34,547 nucleotides of DNA from a candidate division WWE3 bacterium CG23_combo_of_CG06-09_8_20_14_all_40_14 (GCA_002770755.1 PCQY01000032.1:18344-52890), one strand, 5' to 3'; positions 8,980 through 16,650 are shown, numbered from the stretch's first letter. Notes: generated by a model from the sequence alone, not told the origin. Translations and numbers: made by a program.

Positions 8980-9008
8980 TTGCCTTATTTTTCATTATTT
9001 AGTACAAT
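8980..9008 (+). promoter_or_regulatory. Promoter of the TA module (leaderless-type)
   Basis: TTGCCT, 17 nt, TACAAT, 7 nt, ATG 9016. Confidence 0.65.
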
Positions 9009-9015
9009 AGTGCTT

Positions 9016-9279
9016 ATGAACTACAAAGATATAATCACTATCAAACCGGGTAAACGTGGTGGCCAGCCAACCATTCGTGGTATGCGTATCACCGTTTACG
9101 ATGTTTTGAGGATGCTTGCGTCAGGCATGAGCGAAAAGAAAATTTTAAGTGACTTTCCTGAGTTAACCAAGGAGGATATTAAGGCTGTTTTGTCTTATGC
9201 CTCGGAAAGAGAGCATTCTTTGACTACCGCAAACCATGAAGTTACTCTTAGATCAAAACATCTCACGCAAGCTCGTTAA
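9016..9279 (+). CDS. DUF433-family antitoxin (VapB45-like)
   Basis: PGKRGGQPTIRGMRITVYDVL..LASGMS..ILSDFPELTKEDI is the DUF433 signature; start moved to ATG 9016. Confidence 0.9.
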   Translation: MNYKDIITIKPGKRGGQPTIRGMRITVYDVLRMLASGMSEKKILSDFPELTKEDIKAVLSYASEREHSLTTANHEVTLRSKHLTQAR

Positions 9280-9568
9280 AGAGTTTGAAGATTTGTTTCC
9301 AAGATCAAACCATGTTTACCTTCTTGATTTACAGAAGGCTTCTGATGAGGAAATATAGAATTACGCTCGTAATAATGGCTTTACCATCGTAACTCAGGAC
9401 TCAGATTTCAACGAAAGAAGCCTCGTTTACGGATATCCGCCTAAAGTAATTTGGCTTCGGACCGGTAACATTTCCACTCAAAATATCAAGCGCTTGTTGA
9501 AGAAACACAGTCAAGATATTTTATTGTTTGAAAAAGATAAAACCCTGGGCTGTCTGCAAATTTACTAG
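9236..9568 (+). pseudogene. DUF5615 PIN-like toxin (VapC45-like) with an internal TAG
   Basis: MKLLLDQNIS...ASDEEI*NYARNNGFTIVTQDSDF...PPKVIWLRTGN; TAG at 9356-9358 (codon 41) where the family usually has Trp. Confidence 0.85.
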
Positions 9569-9587: not shown

Positions 9588-9709
9588 AAGGCAACTTCCC
9601 ATAATACCGAAACATTAGGCAAAATCGCTCGCTTTGCTCGCTAAGTTCCTCCTTTGGAGGAAGATTTTGCTTAATGTGCGGCGGCTACGCTTCGCTTGCC
9701 TTGTTAGTC
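9588..9709. repeat. Nested inverted-repeat element (attC-like or structured spacer)
   Basis: ACATTAGGCAAAATC (9612-9626) / GATTTTGCTTAATGT (9663-9677); inner TTCCTCC-TTT-GGAGGAA; outer AAGGCAA (9588-9594) / TTGCCTT (9696-9702). Confidence 0.6.
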
Positions 9710-9777
9710 GCTCAGAAAACGATTTATTTATAAGGGGAAAACGAATACAATAATACTGCTTAACATGAAAATAATTT

Positions 9778-11586
9778 ATGCCGAAAATTAAGGATATACC
9801 AAAAATTGATCGCCCAAGAGAAAGGTTTCTTAAAAAAGGGGCAGACGCACTTTCAAAGAGTGATCTTTTGGCGATTCTTTTAGGTAGCGGGATTAGGGGG
9901 AAAAATGTTAGGCAACTTTCGGAGAGTATTATTAAAAAATTCGGTAAAAACTTTTTGAATATAACTGTTGATGATCTTTTAGAAATTTCGGGCATTGGCC
10001 AAGCTAAAGCATTACAAATCGTTTCTGCAATTTCTTTGGTAAAAAGATTCTATGCGGATGAAAAATCAAACGAGATTATTATTAAAAATTCCCAAGATGT
10101 TTTATCTCTTACTTATGACTTAAGGGATAAGAAAAAAGAACATTTGCTTTGTTTGTATCTTAATGCAAGAAATTCCCTACTCAAAAAAGAAATTATCAGC
10201 GTAGGTTTGCTAGATAAAGCATTACTCCATCCAAGAGAAATTTTTTATCCTGCGATAGAATTAAATGCAGCCAGTGTTATTTTGATACACAATCACCCAT
10301 CAGGTGACTCTTCGCCAAGCGAAAAAGATATTGAAGTCGTTGAAAAAATTGTACAAGCGGGCGAAATAATGGGTATTCCCATTATTGATTTCATTATTCT
10401 CTCCGAGAATGATCATTACAGTTTTCACGAAAAACTAAAAAAGCAAAAGGGTGGTTTTGATTATGTTGCAGACGGAATACAGGGAACTCTTTTCGCCTTG
10501 CTTGAAATTGAAAAACCAGCCTACGAGGTAACGACTATACAAAAAATTGACAAACCCTATTTCCACTTTTCAAAAGCTCAAAATAATACCTTCCAATTGC
10601 AGAATAGAAGATATTTGGGCAATAAATATAAACTGCTCGGATTTATTGAAGATATTGTTGCTGAAAAATGCAATGGAATAAAATCATTTTGTGATATTTT
10701 TGCAGGTACTGGTGTTGTCGGAGAAAGATTTAATAAACCAGAAATAAAAATCATTTCTAATGATTTCCTTTTTACAAATTATGTTTGTCTGAAAGCGTTT
10801 CTTGGTACGAGTTCACCTATTCAGAATGTCACAGATAAAATTGATATTCTCAATAGTTTAAAAACTGCCCAAGATAATTATTTTTCAAAATACTTTGGTA
10901 ATACCTATTTTTCACTTGAAAATGCTAGAAAGATTGGGGCAATCCGTGGAGAAATAGAAAGAATTGCCGAAACGGAAGAAGAAAAAAACATTCTCATCTG
11001 TTCCTTAATTTATGCTGTTGATAAGGTTGCAAATACAGTCGGACATTATGACGCTTTTCGTAAAGATTTAGACATGCTACAGCCAGTAAAACTTTTAGCC
11101 CCAAATATTGACCACTTAAATAATGGAAATAACGATATTTACAAAGAAGACGCAAATATCTTGATTAGAAAAATTGTTTGCGATGTTTTATACATAGATC
11201 CGCCCTATAACTCGCGTCAATATTCAGATGCCTATCATTTACTGGAAAATTTAGCTGAATGGAAAAAACCTAATGTTGAAGGAGTGGCAAAAAAAATGGA
11301 TCGCTCTCACATAAAAAGTTCCTACTGTCTTAAAAATGCTACACAGGCATTTGAGGACTTGATTAAAAATGCAAATTGCAAACATATATTATTGTCTTAT
11401 AATAATACTGGGGATTCAAAGGATGGACGGTCCAATGCTAGAATAAACGACAACGATATTTTACGAATATTAAAAAACAAAGGTGAAGTAGAAATTTTCG
11501 AAAGAGATTACAAGGCTTTCACTGCTGGAAAAAGCAATGGCGATGGAAACGCCGAACGAATTTTTTATTGTAATGTAACAAAATAA
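9778..11586 (+). CDS. RadC (HhH + JAB) domain fused to a D12-class (Dam/FokI-like) N6-adenine DNA methyltransferase
   Basis: N-terminus: DRPRERF..G..AL...LLAILLGSG, GIGQAKA, HPREIF, HNHPSGD..PS..D. C-terminus: RRYLGNKYKL, DIFAGTGVVG, YIDPPYN. One uninterrupted frame. Confidence 0.9.
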   Translation: MPKIKDIPKIDRPRERFLKKGADALSKSDLLAILLGSGIRGKNVRQLSESIIKKFGKNFLNITVDDLLEISGIGQAKALQIVSAISLVKRFYADEKSNEIIIKNSQDVLSLTYDLRDKKKEHLLCLYLNARNSLLKKEIISVGLLDKALLHPREIFYPAIELNAASVILIHNHPSGDSSPSEKDIEVVEKIVQAGEIMGIPIIDFIILSENDHYSFHEKLKKQKGGFDYVADGIQGTLFALLEIEKPAYEVTTIQKIDKPYFHFSKAQNNTFQLQNRRYLGNKYKLLGFIEDIVAEKCNGIKSFCDIFAGTGVVGERFNKPEIKIISNDFLFTNYVCLKAFLGTSSPIQNVTDKIDILNSLKTAQDNYFSKYFGNTYFSLENARKIGAIRGEIERIAETEEEKNILICSLIYAVDKVANTVGHYDAFRKDLDMLQPVKLLAPNIDHLNNGNNDIYKEDANILIRKIVCDVLYIDPPYNSRQYSDAYHLLENLAEWKKPNVEGVAKKMDRSHIKSSYCLKNATQAFEDLIKNANCKHILLSYNNTGDSKDGRSNARINDNDILRILKNKGEVEIFERDYKAFTAGKSNGDGNAERIFYCNVTK

Positions 11587-11588
11587 TT

Positions 11589-13406
11589 ATGAAAAAACCT
11601 TGGTCGATTACTACAACACTAAGAAATCCCGAAAGATTGAGAGATTTTTTAATTGTTTTGAAACAGCTTGAAAATTGCAAGTGGGATTTAGAAAGTCAGA
11701 GAAAATATCAAATTCTTTTGATAAAAGAAAGGGTTTATGGCTATGGAATCAATCAATTCTACAATGGATTATCACAAGAACAAATTGATTTAATTGATGA
11801 TCAAACAAAAATAATTACTTTTGAACAAGCCGAAACGATTTTTAATGTTAAAAACTACGAAGATCCTTCGATGAGAGGACGGCAATCAATAAATCCTCTT
11901 AAAAAATTCGGTCTTGTTGTCGTTAAAGACGAAAAAATCTGTATAACCAGCTTAGGAAAACTATTTTTAAAAGACGATTTCGATCTTGGTGAAATATTTT
12001 TTAAAAGTTTTATCAAGTGGCAAATTCCAAATCCTGATAGTGATGACTATAAACTTGAAGACGGATACAACATAGAACCATTTGTTGGCGTTCTTCATCT
12101 TATCCAGAGAGTAAATGAAAAATCAAGAAAATCAGGAGAAAAAGAAAAAGGAATTAGCAAAGAAGAATTTTCTTTATTTTGCCCAACCCTTGTTAATTAT
12201 GAAGATATAGAAATTTATTCTGAAAAAATTATCGCACTACGAAAAGACCTTAAAGACAAACCGAAACAAGAGCAAAAAATAATCCGAGATAAGTATAAAA
12301 AAACTTTCGCACGAGAATTTCTAGGTAAATCAAATAACACAGAAATTCAAAAACTACTAAAAAATCTCAGAGACTACGGAGATAACGCTATCAGATACTT
12401 CCGCCTAACTCGCTATATTTATATACGGGGTGGTGGTTTTTATATTGATCTGGAGCCGAGAAGATCGGTTGAAATCAATGCTTTGTTGGATTTTGATAAT
12501 GCTCAATCAAAGACCTTTGAATCAAAAGAGCAATACTTAGACTATATTTCTGACATCTCTGAGCCAAAACTACCGTGGGAAACTAAAGAAAAACTTATTG
12601 AAATTGCCATAAAATTACTTGAAGACATAAAGTTGTTTGAACGAGAAACAAGGGTAACACCGAAAGTATTTTTGGATTATCAAAAACTGGGTGAAGATGG
12701 ATTGAAAAAATTTATCAACGATCTGAGAAACTATAGAAGAGAGCTACAAGACAAACAAAACCATCAAAAATCACAAGACACAGAACAAATTAAATCCTAC
12801 ATTCAAGAATTTGAAAATATTTTTGAATCTGAAGACAGACCAATACTGCTTGAAAAATTATCATCACTAGGTCTGAATGCCCTGAACGATGCATTAAGAA
12901 TACAGCCAAACTATCCAGTCGGAGATGATAACGAACCAACATTTACCGCACCAGCAAACACGCCAGATATTGAGTGTTTTTATCAAAGTTTTAATGCTAT
13001 TTGTGAGGTAACAATGCTAACGGGCAGAGATCAATGGTATAACGAGGGGCAACCAGTGATGAGACATTTAAGAGATTTTGAAAATAAACATAGCGACAAA
13101 ACTACATATTGTTTGTTTATTGCTCCCCAAATGCACAGAGATACTATAAACACCTTTTGGACAGCCATAAAATACGAATACGAGGGCAATAAACAAAGAA
13201 TAATCCCTTTATCAATAAATAATTTCGTATCTCTTTTAAAAGTGCTCGTTCAGATAAAAACGGAGAATAAATTTTTAAAGCACAGCGAAATTGCTCGCCT
13301 ATACAATGAAATAATTAATTCATCGAACTCTTTTAGTGATTCAGACGGATGGCTTAGAAATATTCCAAATGCCATTTCGTCATGGCAAAAAAGCCTAAAT
13401 TTTTAA
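11589..13406 (+). CDS. AlwI-family type IIS restriction endonuclease
   Basis: WSITTTLRNPER N-terminus; C-terminal P...AP...PDIE...EVTM..GRDQ...EGQPVMRH; flanked by two methyltransferases. Confidence 0.85.
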   Translation: MKKPWSITTTLRNPERLRDFLIVLKQLENCKWDLESQRKYQILLIKERVYGYGINQFYNGLSQEQIDLIDDQTKIITFEQAETIFNVKNYEDPSMRGRQSINPLKKFGLVVVKDEKICITSLGKLFLKDDFDLGEIFFKSFIKWQIPNPDSDDYKLEDGYNIEPFVGVLHLIQRVNEKSRKSGEKEKGISKEEFSLFCPTLVNYEDIEIYSEKIIALRKDLKDKPKQEQKIIRDKYKKTFAREFLGKSNNTEIQKLLKNLRDYGDNAIRYFRLTRYIYIRGGGFYIDLEPRRSVEINALLDFDNAQSKTFESKEQYLDYISDISEPKLPWETKEKLIEIAIKLLEDIKLFERETRVTPKVFLDYQKLGEDGLKKFINDLRNYRRELQDKQNHQKSQDTEQIKSYIQEFENIFESEDRPILLEKLSSLGLNALNDALRIQPNYPVGDDNEPTFTAPANTPDIECFYQSFNAICEVTMLTGRDQWYNEGQPVMRHLRDFENKHSDKTTYCLFIAPQMHRDTINTFWTAIKYEYEGNKQRIIPLSINNFVSLLKVLVQIKTENKFLKHSEIARLYNEIINSSNSFSDSDGWLRNIPNAISSWQKSLNF

Positions 13407-13409
13407 CCT

Positions 13410-14186
13410 ATGAGTATGAAAAAAAATATTATCTACAACGACGATTGCATAAACATACTCAATACAAAGATTGATAAGAGTTCTATTGATCTTGTCTTTG
13501 CCGATCCTCCATATAACTTGTCTGGCAATGGACTAACATGGAAAGGTAATAAGACTGGTGGCGATTGGTATATGGTAAATGAAGCATGGGACAAAATGAC
13601 TGCCCCCGAATATCTACAATTTACAAGAAAATGGATCGGAGCTTGCCATAAAGTTTTAAAAGACACCGGCTCAATCTACATCGCATGCAGTTATCACAAC
13701 ATTGGAGAAGTAATGATTGTTCTTAAACAGCTTGATTTCAAAGTAAATAACATCATTACTTGGTATAAAACAAACGCGATGCCGAATATGACAAGGAGGG
13801 TGTTTACCCACGCAACAGAATTTGTAATTTGGGCTGTCAAAGGTAGTGGCTGGACTTTTAATTATAAAAAAATTAAAGAAATAAATCCTGAAAAACAAAA
13901 AGACGGGACAGAAAAACAAATGCGTGATTTTTGGGAATTACCCTTAGTTCAAGGCAAAGAAAGAGTACGGGGCAAAGATGGAAAAGCTCTGCATCCAACG
14001 CAAAAACCCGAAGAAATGCTAAAAAGAATTATTTTAGCAAGTTCCAACGAAGGCGATACTGTTTTAGATCCATTTTTAGGAAGCGGAACAACCGCCGTTG
14101 TGGCTCAAAAATATGGTCGCAAATGGATTGGGATTGAGAGAGAAAAACAGTATGTGGAAATTTCTAAAAAAAGATTGGGGATATAA
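13410..14186 (+). CDS. Beta-class amino DNA methyltransferase (HinfI/CcrM/DpnA-like)
   Basis: FADPPYN near the N-terminus, HPTQKPE, DPFLGSGTT near the C-terminus. Confidence 0.92.
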   Translation: MSMKKNIIYNDDCINILNTKIDKSSIDLVFADPPYNLSGNGLTWKGNKTGGDWYMVNEAWDKMTAPEYLQFTRKWIGACHKVLKDTGSIYIACSYHNIGEVMIVLKQLDFKVNNIITWYKTNAMPNMTRRVFTHATEFVIWAVKGSGWTFNYKKIKEINPEKQKDGTEKQMRDFWELPLVQGKERVRGKDGKALHPTQKPEEMLKRIILASSNEGDTVLDPFLGSGTTAVVAQKYGRKWIGIEREKQYVEISKKRLGI

Positions 14187-14244
14187 ATATAGGGTACTTT
14201 TTAAAAAACATCACTAAAAAATAGTATTAAATTCAAATAATTCT

Positions 14245-16332
14245 ATGAAAGCAACCGAAGCAAAATTAGTCGACTTTCTAAAAAAATCACCTCAATTCAT
14301 TATTCCTATTTACCAACGAACATACAGTTGGAACGAAAAGGAGTGTCTTCAGCTGTGGAAAGATATTTTACATACCGGAAGTAATGATAAAATCACCGCG
14401 CATTTTGTTGGATCTATCGTTTATGTAGAAAAGGGGCTTTATTCTGTCTCGAGCCAATCTTCATTACTTGTAATTGATGGACAACAAAGACTTACCACGG
14501 TATCGCTAATAATAGAGGCGCTCGCTCGCGCCCTCGGTGAGAGCGAACCAATCGAGGGATTTTCGGCAAAAAAACTTCGCAATTATTTTCTGCTCAATCC
14601 ACTTGAAGAAGGAGAAAAGAAATACAAACTTATCCTGTCGCAAACTGATAAAATAACATTGACATCACTACTCGATCAAAATTCATACCCAAAAGACTTT
14701 TCCGTGAGAGTGAAAGCTAATTTTGATTTTTTTAGCGAAAAAATTGCCGAAGAAAAAGACAATCTACTGGCGGTCTGCAAAGGGTTGGCGAAACTTATTA
14801 TCGTAGATATTTCTCTTAATCGTGACCAAGATAATCCGCAATTAATATTTGAGAGTCTAAATTCAACGGGTCGTGAATTAAGCCAAGCTGATTTGATTCG
14901 AAATTTTATACTTATGGGACTAGAACAGGAACTCCAGTCCAAACTGTATGATCAATATTGGCGACCAATGGAAATAGATTTTGGCCAAGAGGGTTATGCT
15001 GTTTATTTTGACGGCTTTATGAGGCACTATCTCACAGTGAAAACTGGCGTAATTCCGAAAGAACATGAAGTGTATGAAGCGTTTAAGCAATATGCACACT
15101 CACCAGAAATATCCAGTATCGGAGCACTTGTTTCTGATATTAGAACTTTCGCCGGGCATTACTGCGCTATGGCACTTGGCACAGAAACTAATCAGGAACT
15201 TAAAATAGCGTTTCATGACCTCCGAGAATTAAAAGTTGATGTTGCATTTCCTTTTTTATTAGAAATTTACAATGACTATAAAAAAGAGCTTTTATCTACC
15301 GATGAATTATTAAAAATTGTACGACTTATAGAAAACTATGTTTTTCGACGCGCTATATGCGGAATTCCAACTAACTCAATGAATAAAACTTTTGGGAATT
15401 TTTCTCGCAACTTAAGAAAGGACAGATATTTAGAGAGTGTTCAGGCAATTTTTATGCTTCTCCCATCTTATCGCCGTTTTCCTGATGATGAAGAATTTAA
15501 ACGAGAAATCAAGGTTAAGGATGTCTATAATTTTCGTAGCCGAAGTTATTGGTTGCGTCGATTAGAAAATTACGACAGAAAAGAGCGTGTCCCTGTGGAC
15601 GAATACACGATTGAGCATATCATGCCCCAGAATGAGAATTTATCTGCAACATGGAAAACAGCACTAGGTTCTGAATGGGAACGCATTCAAAAAACATATC
15701 TTCATACATTGGGCAATCTTACTTTAACGGGTTACAATTCAGAATATAGCGACAGGCCGTTTATTGAAAAGCGAAACATGGAAGGCGGCTTTTCAGAAAG
15801 CCCGCTAAAACTAAATAAGTCTATTGCCAATAAAGACACATGGACAGAACAAGATATATTAGAACGCGCCGAGACTCTATCGGTACAAGCGATTAATGTT
15901 TGGTTTGCACCAAAAATAGAAAATAGTGTATTAGAGACTTATAAATCTAAAACGGAAGTGACTGAATATAGCATTGAAGATCATCCATATCTTGCATCTG
16001 AACCAATGCAAAGTGTATTTAATGAATTTCGTAAGCAAGTATTAGCACTCGATCCATGCGTAACTGAAACAATTTTGAAATTATATGTTGCATATAAGGC
16101 GGAAACTAATTTTGTCGATATTGTACCGCAAGCAAAAAGACTACGCCTTTCATTAAATGTAACATTTGCAGAAATCAATGACCCAAAAGGCTTGTGCAAA
16201 GATGTTTCAGCACTTGGACGCTGGGGCAATAGCAATGTTGAAGTTGGTCTCTCGAAAATTGAAGAAATCCCTTATGTTATGAGTTTGGTACGCCAAGCAT
16301 TTGAAAAGCAAATGGGGCAGGAAGTAGATTAA
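14245..16332 (+). CDS. GmrSD-family type IV (modification-dependent) restriction endonuclease: DUF262 + DUF1524 with a DUF5655-like C-terminal domain
   Basis: IPIYQRTYSW, IDGQQRLTT, IFESLNSTG; IEHIMPQ...LGNLTL...N (HNH-like); C-terminal YVAYK..NFVDIVPQ. Confidence 0.9.
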   Translation: MKATEAKLVDFLKKSPQFIIPIYQRTYSWNEKECLQLWKDILHTGSNDKITAHFVGSIVYVEKGLYSVSSQSSLLVIDGQQRLTTVSLIIEALARALGESEPIEGFSAKKLRNYFLLNPLEEGEKKYKLILSQTDKITLTSLLDQNSYPKDFSVRVKANFDFFSEKIAEEKDNLLAVCKGLAKLIIVDISLNRDQDNPQLIFESLNSTGRELSQADLIRNFILMGLEQELQSKLYDQYWRPMEIDFGQEGYAVYFDGFMRHYLTVKTGVIPKEHEVYEAFKQYAHSPEISSIGALVSDIRTFAGHYCAMALGTETNQELKIAFHDLRELKVDVAFPFLLEIYNDYKKELLSTDELLKIVRLIENYVFRRAICGIPTNSMNKTFGNFSRNLRKDRYLESVQAIFMLLPSYRRFPDDEEFKREIKVKDVYNFRSRSYWLRRLENYDRKERVPVDEYTIEHIMPQNENLSATWKTALGSEWERIQKTYLHTLGNLTLTGYNSEYSDRPFIEKRNMEGGFSESPLKLNKSIANKDTWTEQDILERAETLSVQAINVWFAPKIENSVLETYKSKTEVTEYSIEDHPYLASEPMQSVFNEFRKQVLALDPCVTETILKLYVAYKAETNFVDIVPQAKRLRLSLNVTFAEINDPKGLCKDVSALGRWGNSNVEVGLSKIEEIPYVMSLVRQAFEKQMGQEVD

Positions 16333-16376
16333 GAATTAAATGTCCGAGAGGGTGTATAGGAATTAAAATAAGGAAC

Positions 16377-16614
16377 CAAACAAACAGTCAAAAATTCCCG
16401 CCCCTTAAACCCCTTCCTGTTTGTTTGAAAAGAATAATAAGGAGTCTTGGCTTCGGGCATTTACCCCTTTCCCCTCTGCCCTTCGCCAAAAACGGAAAAA
16501 GAAATTTGAAAATTTTTTAAAACAAGTTTTCTTATCAGAAAACAAAAGAAAAGCATACATCACATAACAGCGTATATCTGGTTACGGCTTTTATACAAAA
16601 GCCTCCACCCATAT
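16377..16614. repeat. Cluster of hairpins at the right end of the island
   Basis: CAAACAAACAG/CTGTTTGTTTG (16377-16427); TTGGC-TTC-GGGCA / TGCCC-TTC-GCCAA (16447-16489); GTTTTCT/AGAAAAC (16526-16543); GGCTTTT/AAAAGCC (16586-16603) preceded by CACATAAC. Confidence 0.6.
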
Positions 16615-16650
16615 TAACCCATTTGGGTTTAACCAAAATGGGTTAAACCC
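16614..16650 (-). terminator. Hairpin right after the prfB stop, overlapping the right GGGTTAAACCC repeat
   Basis: TTAACCCATTT (16614-16624) / AAATGGGTTAA (16635-16645) stem; no clear U-tract, so the terminator role is uncertain. Confidence 0.4.

Follow-up and report, generated by a model that had tools for sequence, protein, structure and literature searches.

RadC is found in most bacterial lineages and has no accepted function. Here, we analysed a 34,547-nt stretch of the genome of a candidate division WWE3 bacterium, an ultra-small organism (PCQY01000032.1:18344-52890; hereafter the window, with coordinates 1-based on it), in which a complete RadC is fused to a DNA methyltransferase at the head of a type IIS restriction-modification (R-M) operon. 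Standalone RadC proteins (YicR, UPF0758) have 212-290 aa and end right after their JAB domain. Their repair phenotype is disputed (Attaiech 2008, as cited in PMC3239186). From the displacement of domains in other fusions, Iyer et al. predict that RadC is a nucleic-acid enzyme or nuclease (PMC5512222, PMC3239186). In passages of these papers, RadC is described in fusion with ArdC-N, a DnaG-type primase and a DinG/Rad3 helicase and within polyvalent proteins that belong to conjugative elements, i.e. with DNA-handling or conflict domains on mobile DNA as in the window, a context that suggests a nucleic-acid-linked role. The same passages name neither a methyltransferase fusion nor a clamp-type motif. 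Our literature search, which did not extend to the figures and supplements of the Iyer papers, found no description of a RadC-methyltransferase fusion.

The rest of the operon resembles R-M systems of the AlwI/N.BspD6I/N.BstNBI type, such as that of the Enterococcus faecalis plasmid pW208. Both associate an AlwI-family nuclease with two adenine methyltransferase activities in a tight and mobile operon, and the recognition site is presumably asymmetric. However, the pW208 system encodes a single 700-aa double D12 methyltransferase followed by the nuclease, whereas in the window separate alpha D12 and beta N6_N4 genes flank the nuclease gene, the first one bearing a 278-residue RadC head and linker. 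Additional N-terminal modules are known in other methyltransferases: those of SsoII-type R-M systems have a regulatory DNA-binding domain at this position. Fusions with a helix-turn-helix domain likewise place an extra DNA-binding module before the catalytic domain, but the window head consists of a non-specific helix-hairpin-helix (HhH) and an enzyme domain. Finally, the eukaryotic DNMT1-PCNA pair is a clamp-tethered maintenance methyltransferase. In bacteria, clamp-tethered enzymes, among them those transposases of insertion sequences that bind the beta clamp (PMC4549789), have a short motif of the Q..LF type within a disordered region beside a DNA enzyme (PMC6511837), a layout also seen in the window.

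The original prediction had presented this locus as the best candidate for an undescribed system. In our analysis, the operon is an ordinary type IIS R-M system, and what is undescribed in it comes down to the RadC head and its linker motif.

Organization of the fusion gene and its operon

Four closely spaced open reading frames (ORFs) on the + strand span positions 9778-16332 of the window. The first one (9778-11586, +, 602 aa) encodes the fusion, which is supported by ORF calling, Pfam, NCBIfam and homologues. It begins with the UPF0758_N domain of RadC, of the HhH type, at 9787-10011 (residues 4-78; Pfam PF20582, E 1.9e-22), followed by the RadC JAB domain with an intact metal site at 10081-10434 (residues 102-219; PF04002, E 1.4e-37). 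A conserved linker block, DYVADGIQGTLFALLEIEKPAYEV, lies at 10456-10527 (residues 227-250), with its core QGTLF at 10480-10494. The D12-class (alpha) N6-adenine methyltransferase part, hereafter M1, occupies 10612-11586 (residues 279-602; MethyltransfD12 PF02086 at 279-536, E 2.8e-32) and matches the PADLOC model MTase_II PDLC03373 over residues 271-601 (E 2.6e-113). After a gap of 2 nt comes the gene of an AlwI-family type IIS nuclease, R (11589-13406, +, 605 aa; Pfam RE_AlwI at 107-549, E 4.3e-80), and after a further 3 nt that of a second methyltransferase, M2 (13410-14186, +, 258 aa; PF01555 at 26-254, E 3.9e-65), of the beta-class N6_N4 type. M2 is CcrM-like, with 262.8 bits against the NCBIfam CcrM model, under its cut-off of 830. 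The original prediction had read here a full RadC, with the motif HNHPSGD..PS..D, fused in frame to an m6A methyltransferase, then an AlwI-family nuclease and a second methyltransferase at 2-3 nt spacing; all of this is confirmed in every detail, the metal motif and both spacings included.

As in AlwI-family type IIS systems, R has the RE_AlwI nuclease fold and its catalytic block, and methyltransferases predicted to serve both strands (D12 M1 and N6_N4 M2) are encoded beside it, here on either side. The best match of R, over its full length, is the PADLOC model PDLC03393 (REase_II, "Type II nicking endonuclease"; E 2.9e-132). R also aligns with the large subunit of N.BspD6I (PDB 2ewf, E 1.3e-36), the PD.E...EVT block being kept in the alignment.

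The RadC part reaches 216.2 bits against the NCBIfam RadC equivalog (cut-off 180), and the only solved structure related to it is that of a RadC homologue (PDB 2qlc, E 1.1e-26). As in standalone RadC, the full UPF0758_N HhH and the JAB domain with its E, HxH and S..D motif are present with all metal and catalytic residues, i.e. E154, H171, H173, S181 and D184 (HPRE...HNHPSGDSSPSEKD). These five residues are invariant in an alignment of 36 sequences that includes a relative at 49% identity; in the same alignment, G72, G74, K77 and A78 of the GIGQAKA hairpin of the HhH are invariant, and the FAGTG and DPPY motifs of M1 are unchanged across the aligned fusions. In contrast to the ~220-230 aa of a standalone RadC, the frame is a 602-aa fusion in which a linker block and a methyltransferase are added after the JAB domain. 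Pfam matches in the head are of the HhH type only, with no helix-turn-helix or winged-helix regulator domain. Between the JAB and methyltransferase domains, no in-frame start with a Shine-Dalgarno-like sequence is conserved among 11 loci, and L016, one of them, lacks any candidate. The methyltransferase is hence produced in fused form.

Distribution of the fusion

A database search with the complete fusion returned 120 best clusters (75-100% identity), all of which carry both PF04002 and PF02086. With the head alone, 1276 clusters of 331-1054 aa were found, and each of the best 120 among them contains a DNA methyltransferase domain, of the D12 type in 119 and of the N6_N4 type in 1. We then fetched 52 loci from species-representative genomes. 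Complete fusions of at least 589 aa are present in 33 of them, three others are fused up to the end of the contig (L030, L037, L044) and one is shortened (L034). A contig end interrupts the head in three loci (L047, L048, L050), the 5' end is lost at the contig start in L015, and three loci (L049, L052, L053) are distant single-domain matches. The possibility of an assembly error or chance fusion was ruled out by the 120 fused best clusters and the 33 complete fused loci out of 52. The refuting condition set with the original prediction, a fusion unique to this assembly with a stop between the domains in relatives, fails, as the fusion recurs elsewhere and such a stop is missing in most relatives.

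The loci bear the taxon labels of the public records, in which binning errors are possible. The candidate phyla include Moranii-, Uhrii-, Jacksonii-, Kaiser-, Nomura- and Magasanikiibacteria, Saccharibacteria, Gracilibacteria and Peribacteria; the other labels are Nitrospirae, Desulfobacteraceae, Spirochaetaceae, several gammaproteobacterial bins, a 2.6-Mb Poriferihabitaceae chromosome and one Woesearchaeota bin. In these records, the protein is named either "DNA repair protein RadC" or "adenine-specific DNA-methyltransferase", and the fusion is apparent from neither of them. Searches of 72,556 plasmid and 50,697 phage records gave no fused form. The RadC head is a widespread and apparently undescribed accessory.

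In three loci (L035:669-3411, L036:901-2723 and L039:7001-9754), the RadC-M1 gene is truncated just past the FAGTGVV motif, and a cassette encoding a Bro-N protein and a PLD (NgoFVII-like) nuclease stands in place of R, as a recurrent invader.

Association of the RadC head with different methyltransferases

The same head precedes several unrelated methyltransferases. In the loci that have the same operon as the window (class A), the M1-R-M2 trio is kept with M2 after R, and the head and M1 are respectively 71-94% and 70-97% identical to those of the window. In class B loci, the head is 81-93% identical, but the D12 methyltransferase only ~43% and the AlwI-family nuclease ~25%, and the gene order is DUF4357, RadC-M1', D12 M2', R' and an AAA_15 ATPase. 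In L042 and L043, the C5 methyltransferase that bears a 91% identical head precedes an R.HinP1I-family nuclease and Vsr. The frame L044:1612-4419, which is cut by the end of its contig, joins RadC, C5 and D12 domains in a single protein of at least 936 aa, and in P0322 the partner is of the N6_N4 type. Representatives at the 50% clustering level add three more C5 fusions, another N6_N4 fusion (P0201) and a second D12 fusion with a head only ~50% identical. Since the same head is found on C5, N6_N4 and two D12 subfamilies, it follows methyltransferases and not AlwI-type nucleases.

This distribution bears on the idea, put forward in the original prediction, that RadC is a dedicated nuclease partner or a nick-repair factor. 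The JAB domain would then be a DNA nuclease or end processor that cuts the second strand beside a nickase-like R, or that trims or repairs nicks in the host DNA. R is indeed nearest to nicking-enzyme profiles and to a nicking-enzyme structure (the PADLOC and N.BspD6I matches above), the operon has no small-subunit gene, and Iyer et al. predict a nuclease function of RadC from domain displacement. However, nicking and cutting by R are not distinguishable from its sequence, and two copies of the operon without RadC (L038 and L040) retain the same R. Moreover, the 91% identical head stands on a C5 methyltransferase beside an ordinary R.HinP1I-type nuclease and Vsr, and related heads stand on N6_N4 enzymes. 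The idea did not hold up for these partners, and we consider it improbable for the window.

The two RadC-less operons also indicate that RadC is an accessory and is dispensable. The proposal that RadC forms an integral part of the R-M system can thus be kept in one respect, as the head is a selected part of the methyltransferase gene, and has to be dropped in another, as the operon exists without it.

To place the heads, we used a quick maximum-likelihood tree, in which many inner forks are weak. The 37 close heads, including that of the window, form one tight clade apart from standalone RadC (96% support), which travels with R-M cassettes and inside which the partner classes are intermixed. 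A second head lineage, with P0123 (D12) and P0209 (C5), forms its own clade (100% support). Mapping the partner label on the head tree requires 10-11 changes, and the RadC residues of L003 (class A) and L019 (class B) are identical. The head is a selected protein module that was joined repeatedly to pre-existing, unrelated methyltransferases; it recombines between methyltransferase genes and is an accessory of R-M methyltransferases generally.

The head is under purifying selection on the protein: the nonsynonymous divergence (dN) is 0.03-0.19 and the synonymous divergence (dS) ranges from 0.6 to saturated, with a dN/dS of ~0.05, close to the value for class A M1. When the window is compared with L002, its nearest relative, dS is 0.63 in RadC and 0.23 in M1, a difference that points to a recombination mosaic. 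In addition, the metagenome-assembled genome (MAG) JAHILZ01 has three RadC heads on three contigs, i.e. the class A operon L007, the broken remnant L036 and the C5/HinP1I-type/Vsr locus L042, a setting in which heads could recombine. Such observations might also be explained by a selfish spread, in which the head and the ends of the island serve mainly as homology for swapping R-M cargo, the function of the RadC protein being secondary. A head phylogeny that mixes methyltransferase classes up to identical class A and B heads, a mosaic dS, three heads in one MAG and conserved non-coding ends bracketing the island (see below) speak for this explanation. A dN/dS of ~0.05 with saturated dS, however, shows that the protein, and not just DNA homology, has been selected over the long term, the catalytic residues do not vary, and the second head lineage, at ~50% identity, has the same fusions and motif. 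As a full account of the head, we therefore give this explanation little credence.

The linker block and its resemblance to clamp-binding motifs

In all fused forms, the JAB domain is followed by the linker block. Within it, Y229, G233, Q235, L238 and F239 are invariant in the 36 sequences (Y..G.Q..LF), and divergent heads keep the block as well (..QKSLFE.., ..QSSLFD.. and ..QMGLFD..). By contrast, 29 standalone RadC representatives end before it and lack the motif. In the AlphaFold2 model, the linker lies between two folded parts and has a predicted local distance difference test score (pLDDT) below 50 over residues 231-266. The consensus of beta-clamp-binding motifs, QL(D/S)LF, is described as variable and usually located in flexible regions (PMC6511837). 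In the fusions, the Q, L and F of the motif are fixed and its position 3 is mostly S or T, but its position 2 is not the L of the consensus. The stretch that carries it is flexible and exposed in the model, as in known clamp binders. We take the motif to be a probable docking site on the clamp.

The motif is also found without RadC. In L038, a RadC-less class A locus, the short leader of M1 retains ..AQGILFDFLED. Of 50 independent M1-family representatives that lack RadC, four have Q..[LM]F in their leader (QLPLF, QLALF, QGRLF and QLFLF), while 0.54 are expected and only 2 of 5000 shuffles reached four. Six rows were dropped as fragments of RadC fusions before this count; with them, it was 7 out of 56. 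Our literature search found no restriction-system methyltransferase with a clamp motif.

We also predicted the complex between residues 216-270 and the DnaN of the same genome. The score was 0.45 (0.43, 0.48 and 0.45 in the individual runs), against 0.00 for the best of three controls, with a contact agreement of at least 65% between the runs and a partner pLDDT of at least 43. In the calibration of this tool, 51 of 78 solved complexes and 2 of 108 mismatched pairs pass its mark; at scores of 0.60 or less, however, only 5 of the 78 solved complexes pass, together with all 4 passing mismatches (of 180). As complexes of the clamp with peptides are already solved, the pass may reflect likeness only. 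The predicted complex therefore lends weak support to clamp docking.

One of the four RadC-less proteins with a leader motif, P0126, is a LexA-methyltransferase fusion. It consists of LexA_DNA_bind and Peptidase_S24 domains, a linker bearing QLPLF and a methyltransferase 60% identical to M1, and is thus a second case of a DNA-binding plus peptidase-fold head before an M1-family methyltransferase. In P0168, an HTH_3 domain precedes an M1-family methyltransferase, and several other relatives have helix-turn-helix-like leaders.

These relatives raise the question of a regulatory or processing head, by which RadC would set the timing or the amount of the methyltransferase relative to the nuclease, as a control of establishment or homeostasis. 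The head could do so by cutting itself in the linker, by proteolytic action on a partner, or by detecting damaged or single-stranded DNA. The position of RadC is held by known regulators in P0126 and P0168, LexA and RadC are both built from a DNA-binding domain with a peptidase-fold domain behind it, the metal site of the JAB domain is intact and selected, and the linker is disordered and hence accessible. On the other hand, the HhH binds DNA non-specifically and the head has no helix-turn-helix. Moreover, in several loci, an apparent separate controller gene, of XRE type as judged from the aligned upstream DNA only, ends directly before the fusion, so a regulator may already be present. Finally, neither a conserved Gly-Gly nor another obvious site of cleavage is present in the linker, and Iyer et al., who argue that RadC-type JAB domains have no groove for a ubiquitin-like tail, predict a nucleic-acid enzyme (PMC5512222, PMC3239186). 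Regulation by the head is on this evidence doubtful, although it deserves more weight than a nuclease partnership.

A possible role for the RadC head

The occurrence of one head on three methyltransferase classes, the existence of the operon without it and the conservation of the JAB site are best accommodated by an accessory that places the protective enzyme. The reading that we favour, tentatively and at somewhat less than an even chance, is that the RadC head and linker tether the protective methyltransferase to new DNA, as an accessory of an acquired type IIS island. The linker would dock on the beta sliding clamp while the HhH domain would bind DNA, and this docking would hold M1 on newly replicated, repaired or recombined DNA. 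Sites would then be methylated ahead of attack by the cognate nuclease, which could result in less self-restriction and in easier establishment in a new host. Since its site is under selection, the JAB domain may add an enzymatic step at the same place, on DNA or on protein.

Several observations weigh against this tethering role. Six of the 52 loci (L035, L036, L039, L045, L046, L051) contain only decayed heads or remnants, two (L038, L040) are RadC-less copies of the M1-R-M2 operon, and M1 has standalone homologues with no head at 46-57% identity; the RadC-less operons and these homologues imply that the system works without the head. If the bare motif is enough in L038 and in some RadC-less relatives, targeting alone leaves the intact JAB domain unexplained. 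The motif itself departs from the consensus of the clamp-binding enzymes cited above, as its position 2 is G, S, K, M or N and not L, and the support from the predicted DnaN complex is weak. A helix is predicted at residues 234-244, within a block of ~24 residues that is longer than a typical clamp-binding peptide, and another contact could therefore be its role. Finally, the 6.7-kb metagenome-bin contig of L031 is labelled archaeal, and an archaeon would offer no partner to a bacterial clamp motif.

A stronger version is possible but rather unlikely: the head would be a replisome coupler that turns three classes of methyltransferases into clamp-tethered maintenance enzymes, as a counterpart of DNMT1-PCNA, with the JAB domain processing DNA at forks or gaps. 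If true, it would give the RadC family a biochemical context. Docking on the clamp would then also be a wider, unrecognised feature of M1-family methyltransferases, as leaders with QLxLF occur in relatives that lack RadC or are fused to LexA.

For the favoured tethering role as well, binding of the linker to the clamp would explain how mobile R-M systems limit self-damage and settle in new hosts, and would be a bacterial parallel to maintenance methylation coupled to replication. A mobile gene whose product docks on a hub conserved among hosts would work in many of them. In any case, a selected RadC lineage welded to protective methyltransferases offers a defined genetic setting for the function of RadC.

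Horizontal acquisition of the island

The GC content is 0.31-0.33 over positions 10001-13000 and ~0.40 on both flanks. The check for another radC, suggested along with the original prediction, found no second copy in the genome (635,565 bases in 40 contigs, 93.9% complete). RadC is present in 35 of 60 relatives, always in frames of no more than 290 aa (212-290 aa for these standalone forms) and never fused. The one genome of the same genus (G001) has no RadC; from prfB to the small protein that precedes ftsE, it contains dcd, a Nudix gene and small ORFs, with no RadC, R-M gene or GmrSD. When 400 other genomes of the phylum were sampled evenly, 111 had a RadC and only 4 had a RadC frame of at least 500 aa, two of which (G303 and G310) also had a standalone RadC. 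The sporadic presence of fused RadC, together with unfused or missing RadC in relatives, shows that it is a mobile paralogue and not the housekeeping gene of the lineage. An insertion at a housekeeping radC was rejected for the same reasons, the site of the congener being empty. Positions 9707-16613 of the window thus form a defence island gained by horizontal transfer, which brought RadC along.

These comparisons also bear on a neutral fusion between a housekeeping radC and an adjacent methyltransferase, with no functional meaning. Small, tightly spaced genomes often merge neighbouring genes, and the RadC part scores as a full, ordinary RadC equivalog. Yet the gene is fused in none of the 35 RadC-bearing relatives and the congener has no RadC; furthermore, the head has at least four partner types and two lineages, is under purifying selection and is followed by an invariant linker motif missing from standalone RadC. 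A fusion of this kind is hardly credible.

The left end of the island is a leader with promoter-like hexamers at 9707-9777 (+), which matches L003, L004, L019, L035, L037 and L047 at 85-93% identity (blastn). In these six loci, the aligned stretch directly precedes the RadC start, and in L021 and L022 it precedes the DUF4357 gene, then RadC. This left end is therefore common to class A, class B and remnant loci. It has a consensus promoter-like site at 9727-9754, while the counts of our promoter and terminator scans do not exceed those of shuffled sequences. At the right end lies a C-rich non-coding element of ~240 nt (16370-16613, no strand assigned), in single copy in its own genome. Elements 73-86% identical to it (blastn) are found in loci of both classes (L002, L003, L004, L015, L019, L021, L022 and L035), for example at L002:12907-13097, L003:14297-14545, L019:14281-14536 and L035:5925-6081. 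A small ORF in this element was rejected, as by eye it is not conserved between copies. The element may act as a recombination site or encode an RNA; scans of the island gave no Rfam match and no tRNA, and no recombinase gene lies inside the island. With regard to the polyvalent proteins mentioned above, no transfer, conjugation or phage genes were found around the island or in the loci inspected.

The fourth ORF (14245-16332, +, 695 aa) encodes a type IV restriction protein of the GmrSD type that has a C-terminal DUF5655 (Pfam GmrSD_N, GmrSD_C and DUF5655; PADLOC). Such a protein follows the operon only here and in L031 (27% identity); between M2 and the right end, the cargo is GmrSD in the window and an AAA_15 ATPase elsewhere. 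The GmrSD-type gene is thus variable cargo of the island, outside the R-M operon. Its best PADLOC matches are Orf5 and HEC-06, above the type IV model.

In k-mer counts over the genome, GAGTC and GGATC, as possible sites, occur at 0.99 and 0.85 of expectation, i.e. with no signal of avoidance, which fits a recent arrival of the system. Short palindromes are much rarer genome-wide than expected from a maximal-order Markov model (ACGT 0.09, GATC 0.30, TCGA 0.35, GCWGC 0.38, GGCC 0.41 and CCWGG 0.42), which suggests a long exposure to other restriction systems.

Two minor features adjoin the island. On its right, a 35-nt palindromic repeat at 16614-16650, with at least 10 more copies on contigs C6, C10, C13, C31, C32 and C34 of the same genome, is probably a host element of the repetitive extragenic palindromic (REP-like) or terminator kind that marks the right border. 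Just left of the island, positions 8980-9568 contain a DUF433 gene (8980-9279) and, after it, a frame of DUF5615, the PIN-like partner, with an in-frame TAG at 9356-9358; the two look like a decayed toxin-antitoxin-type pair.

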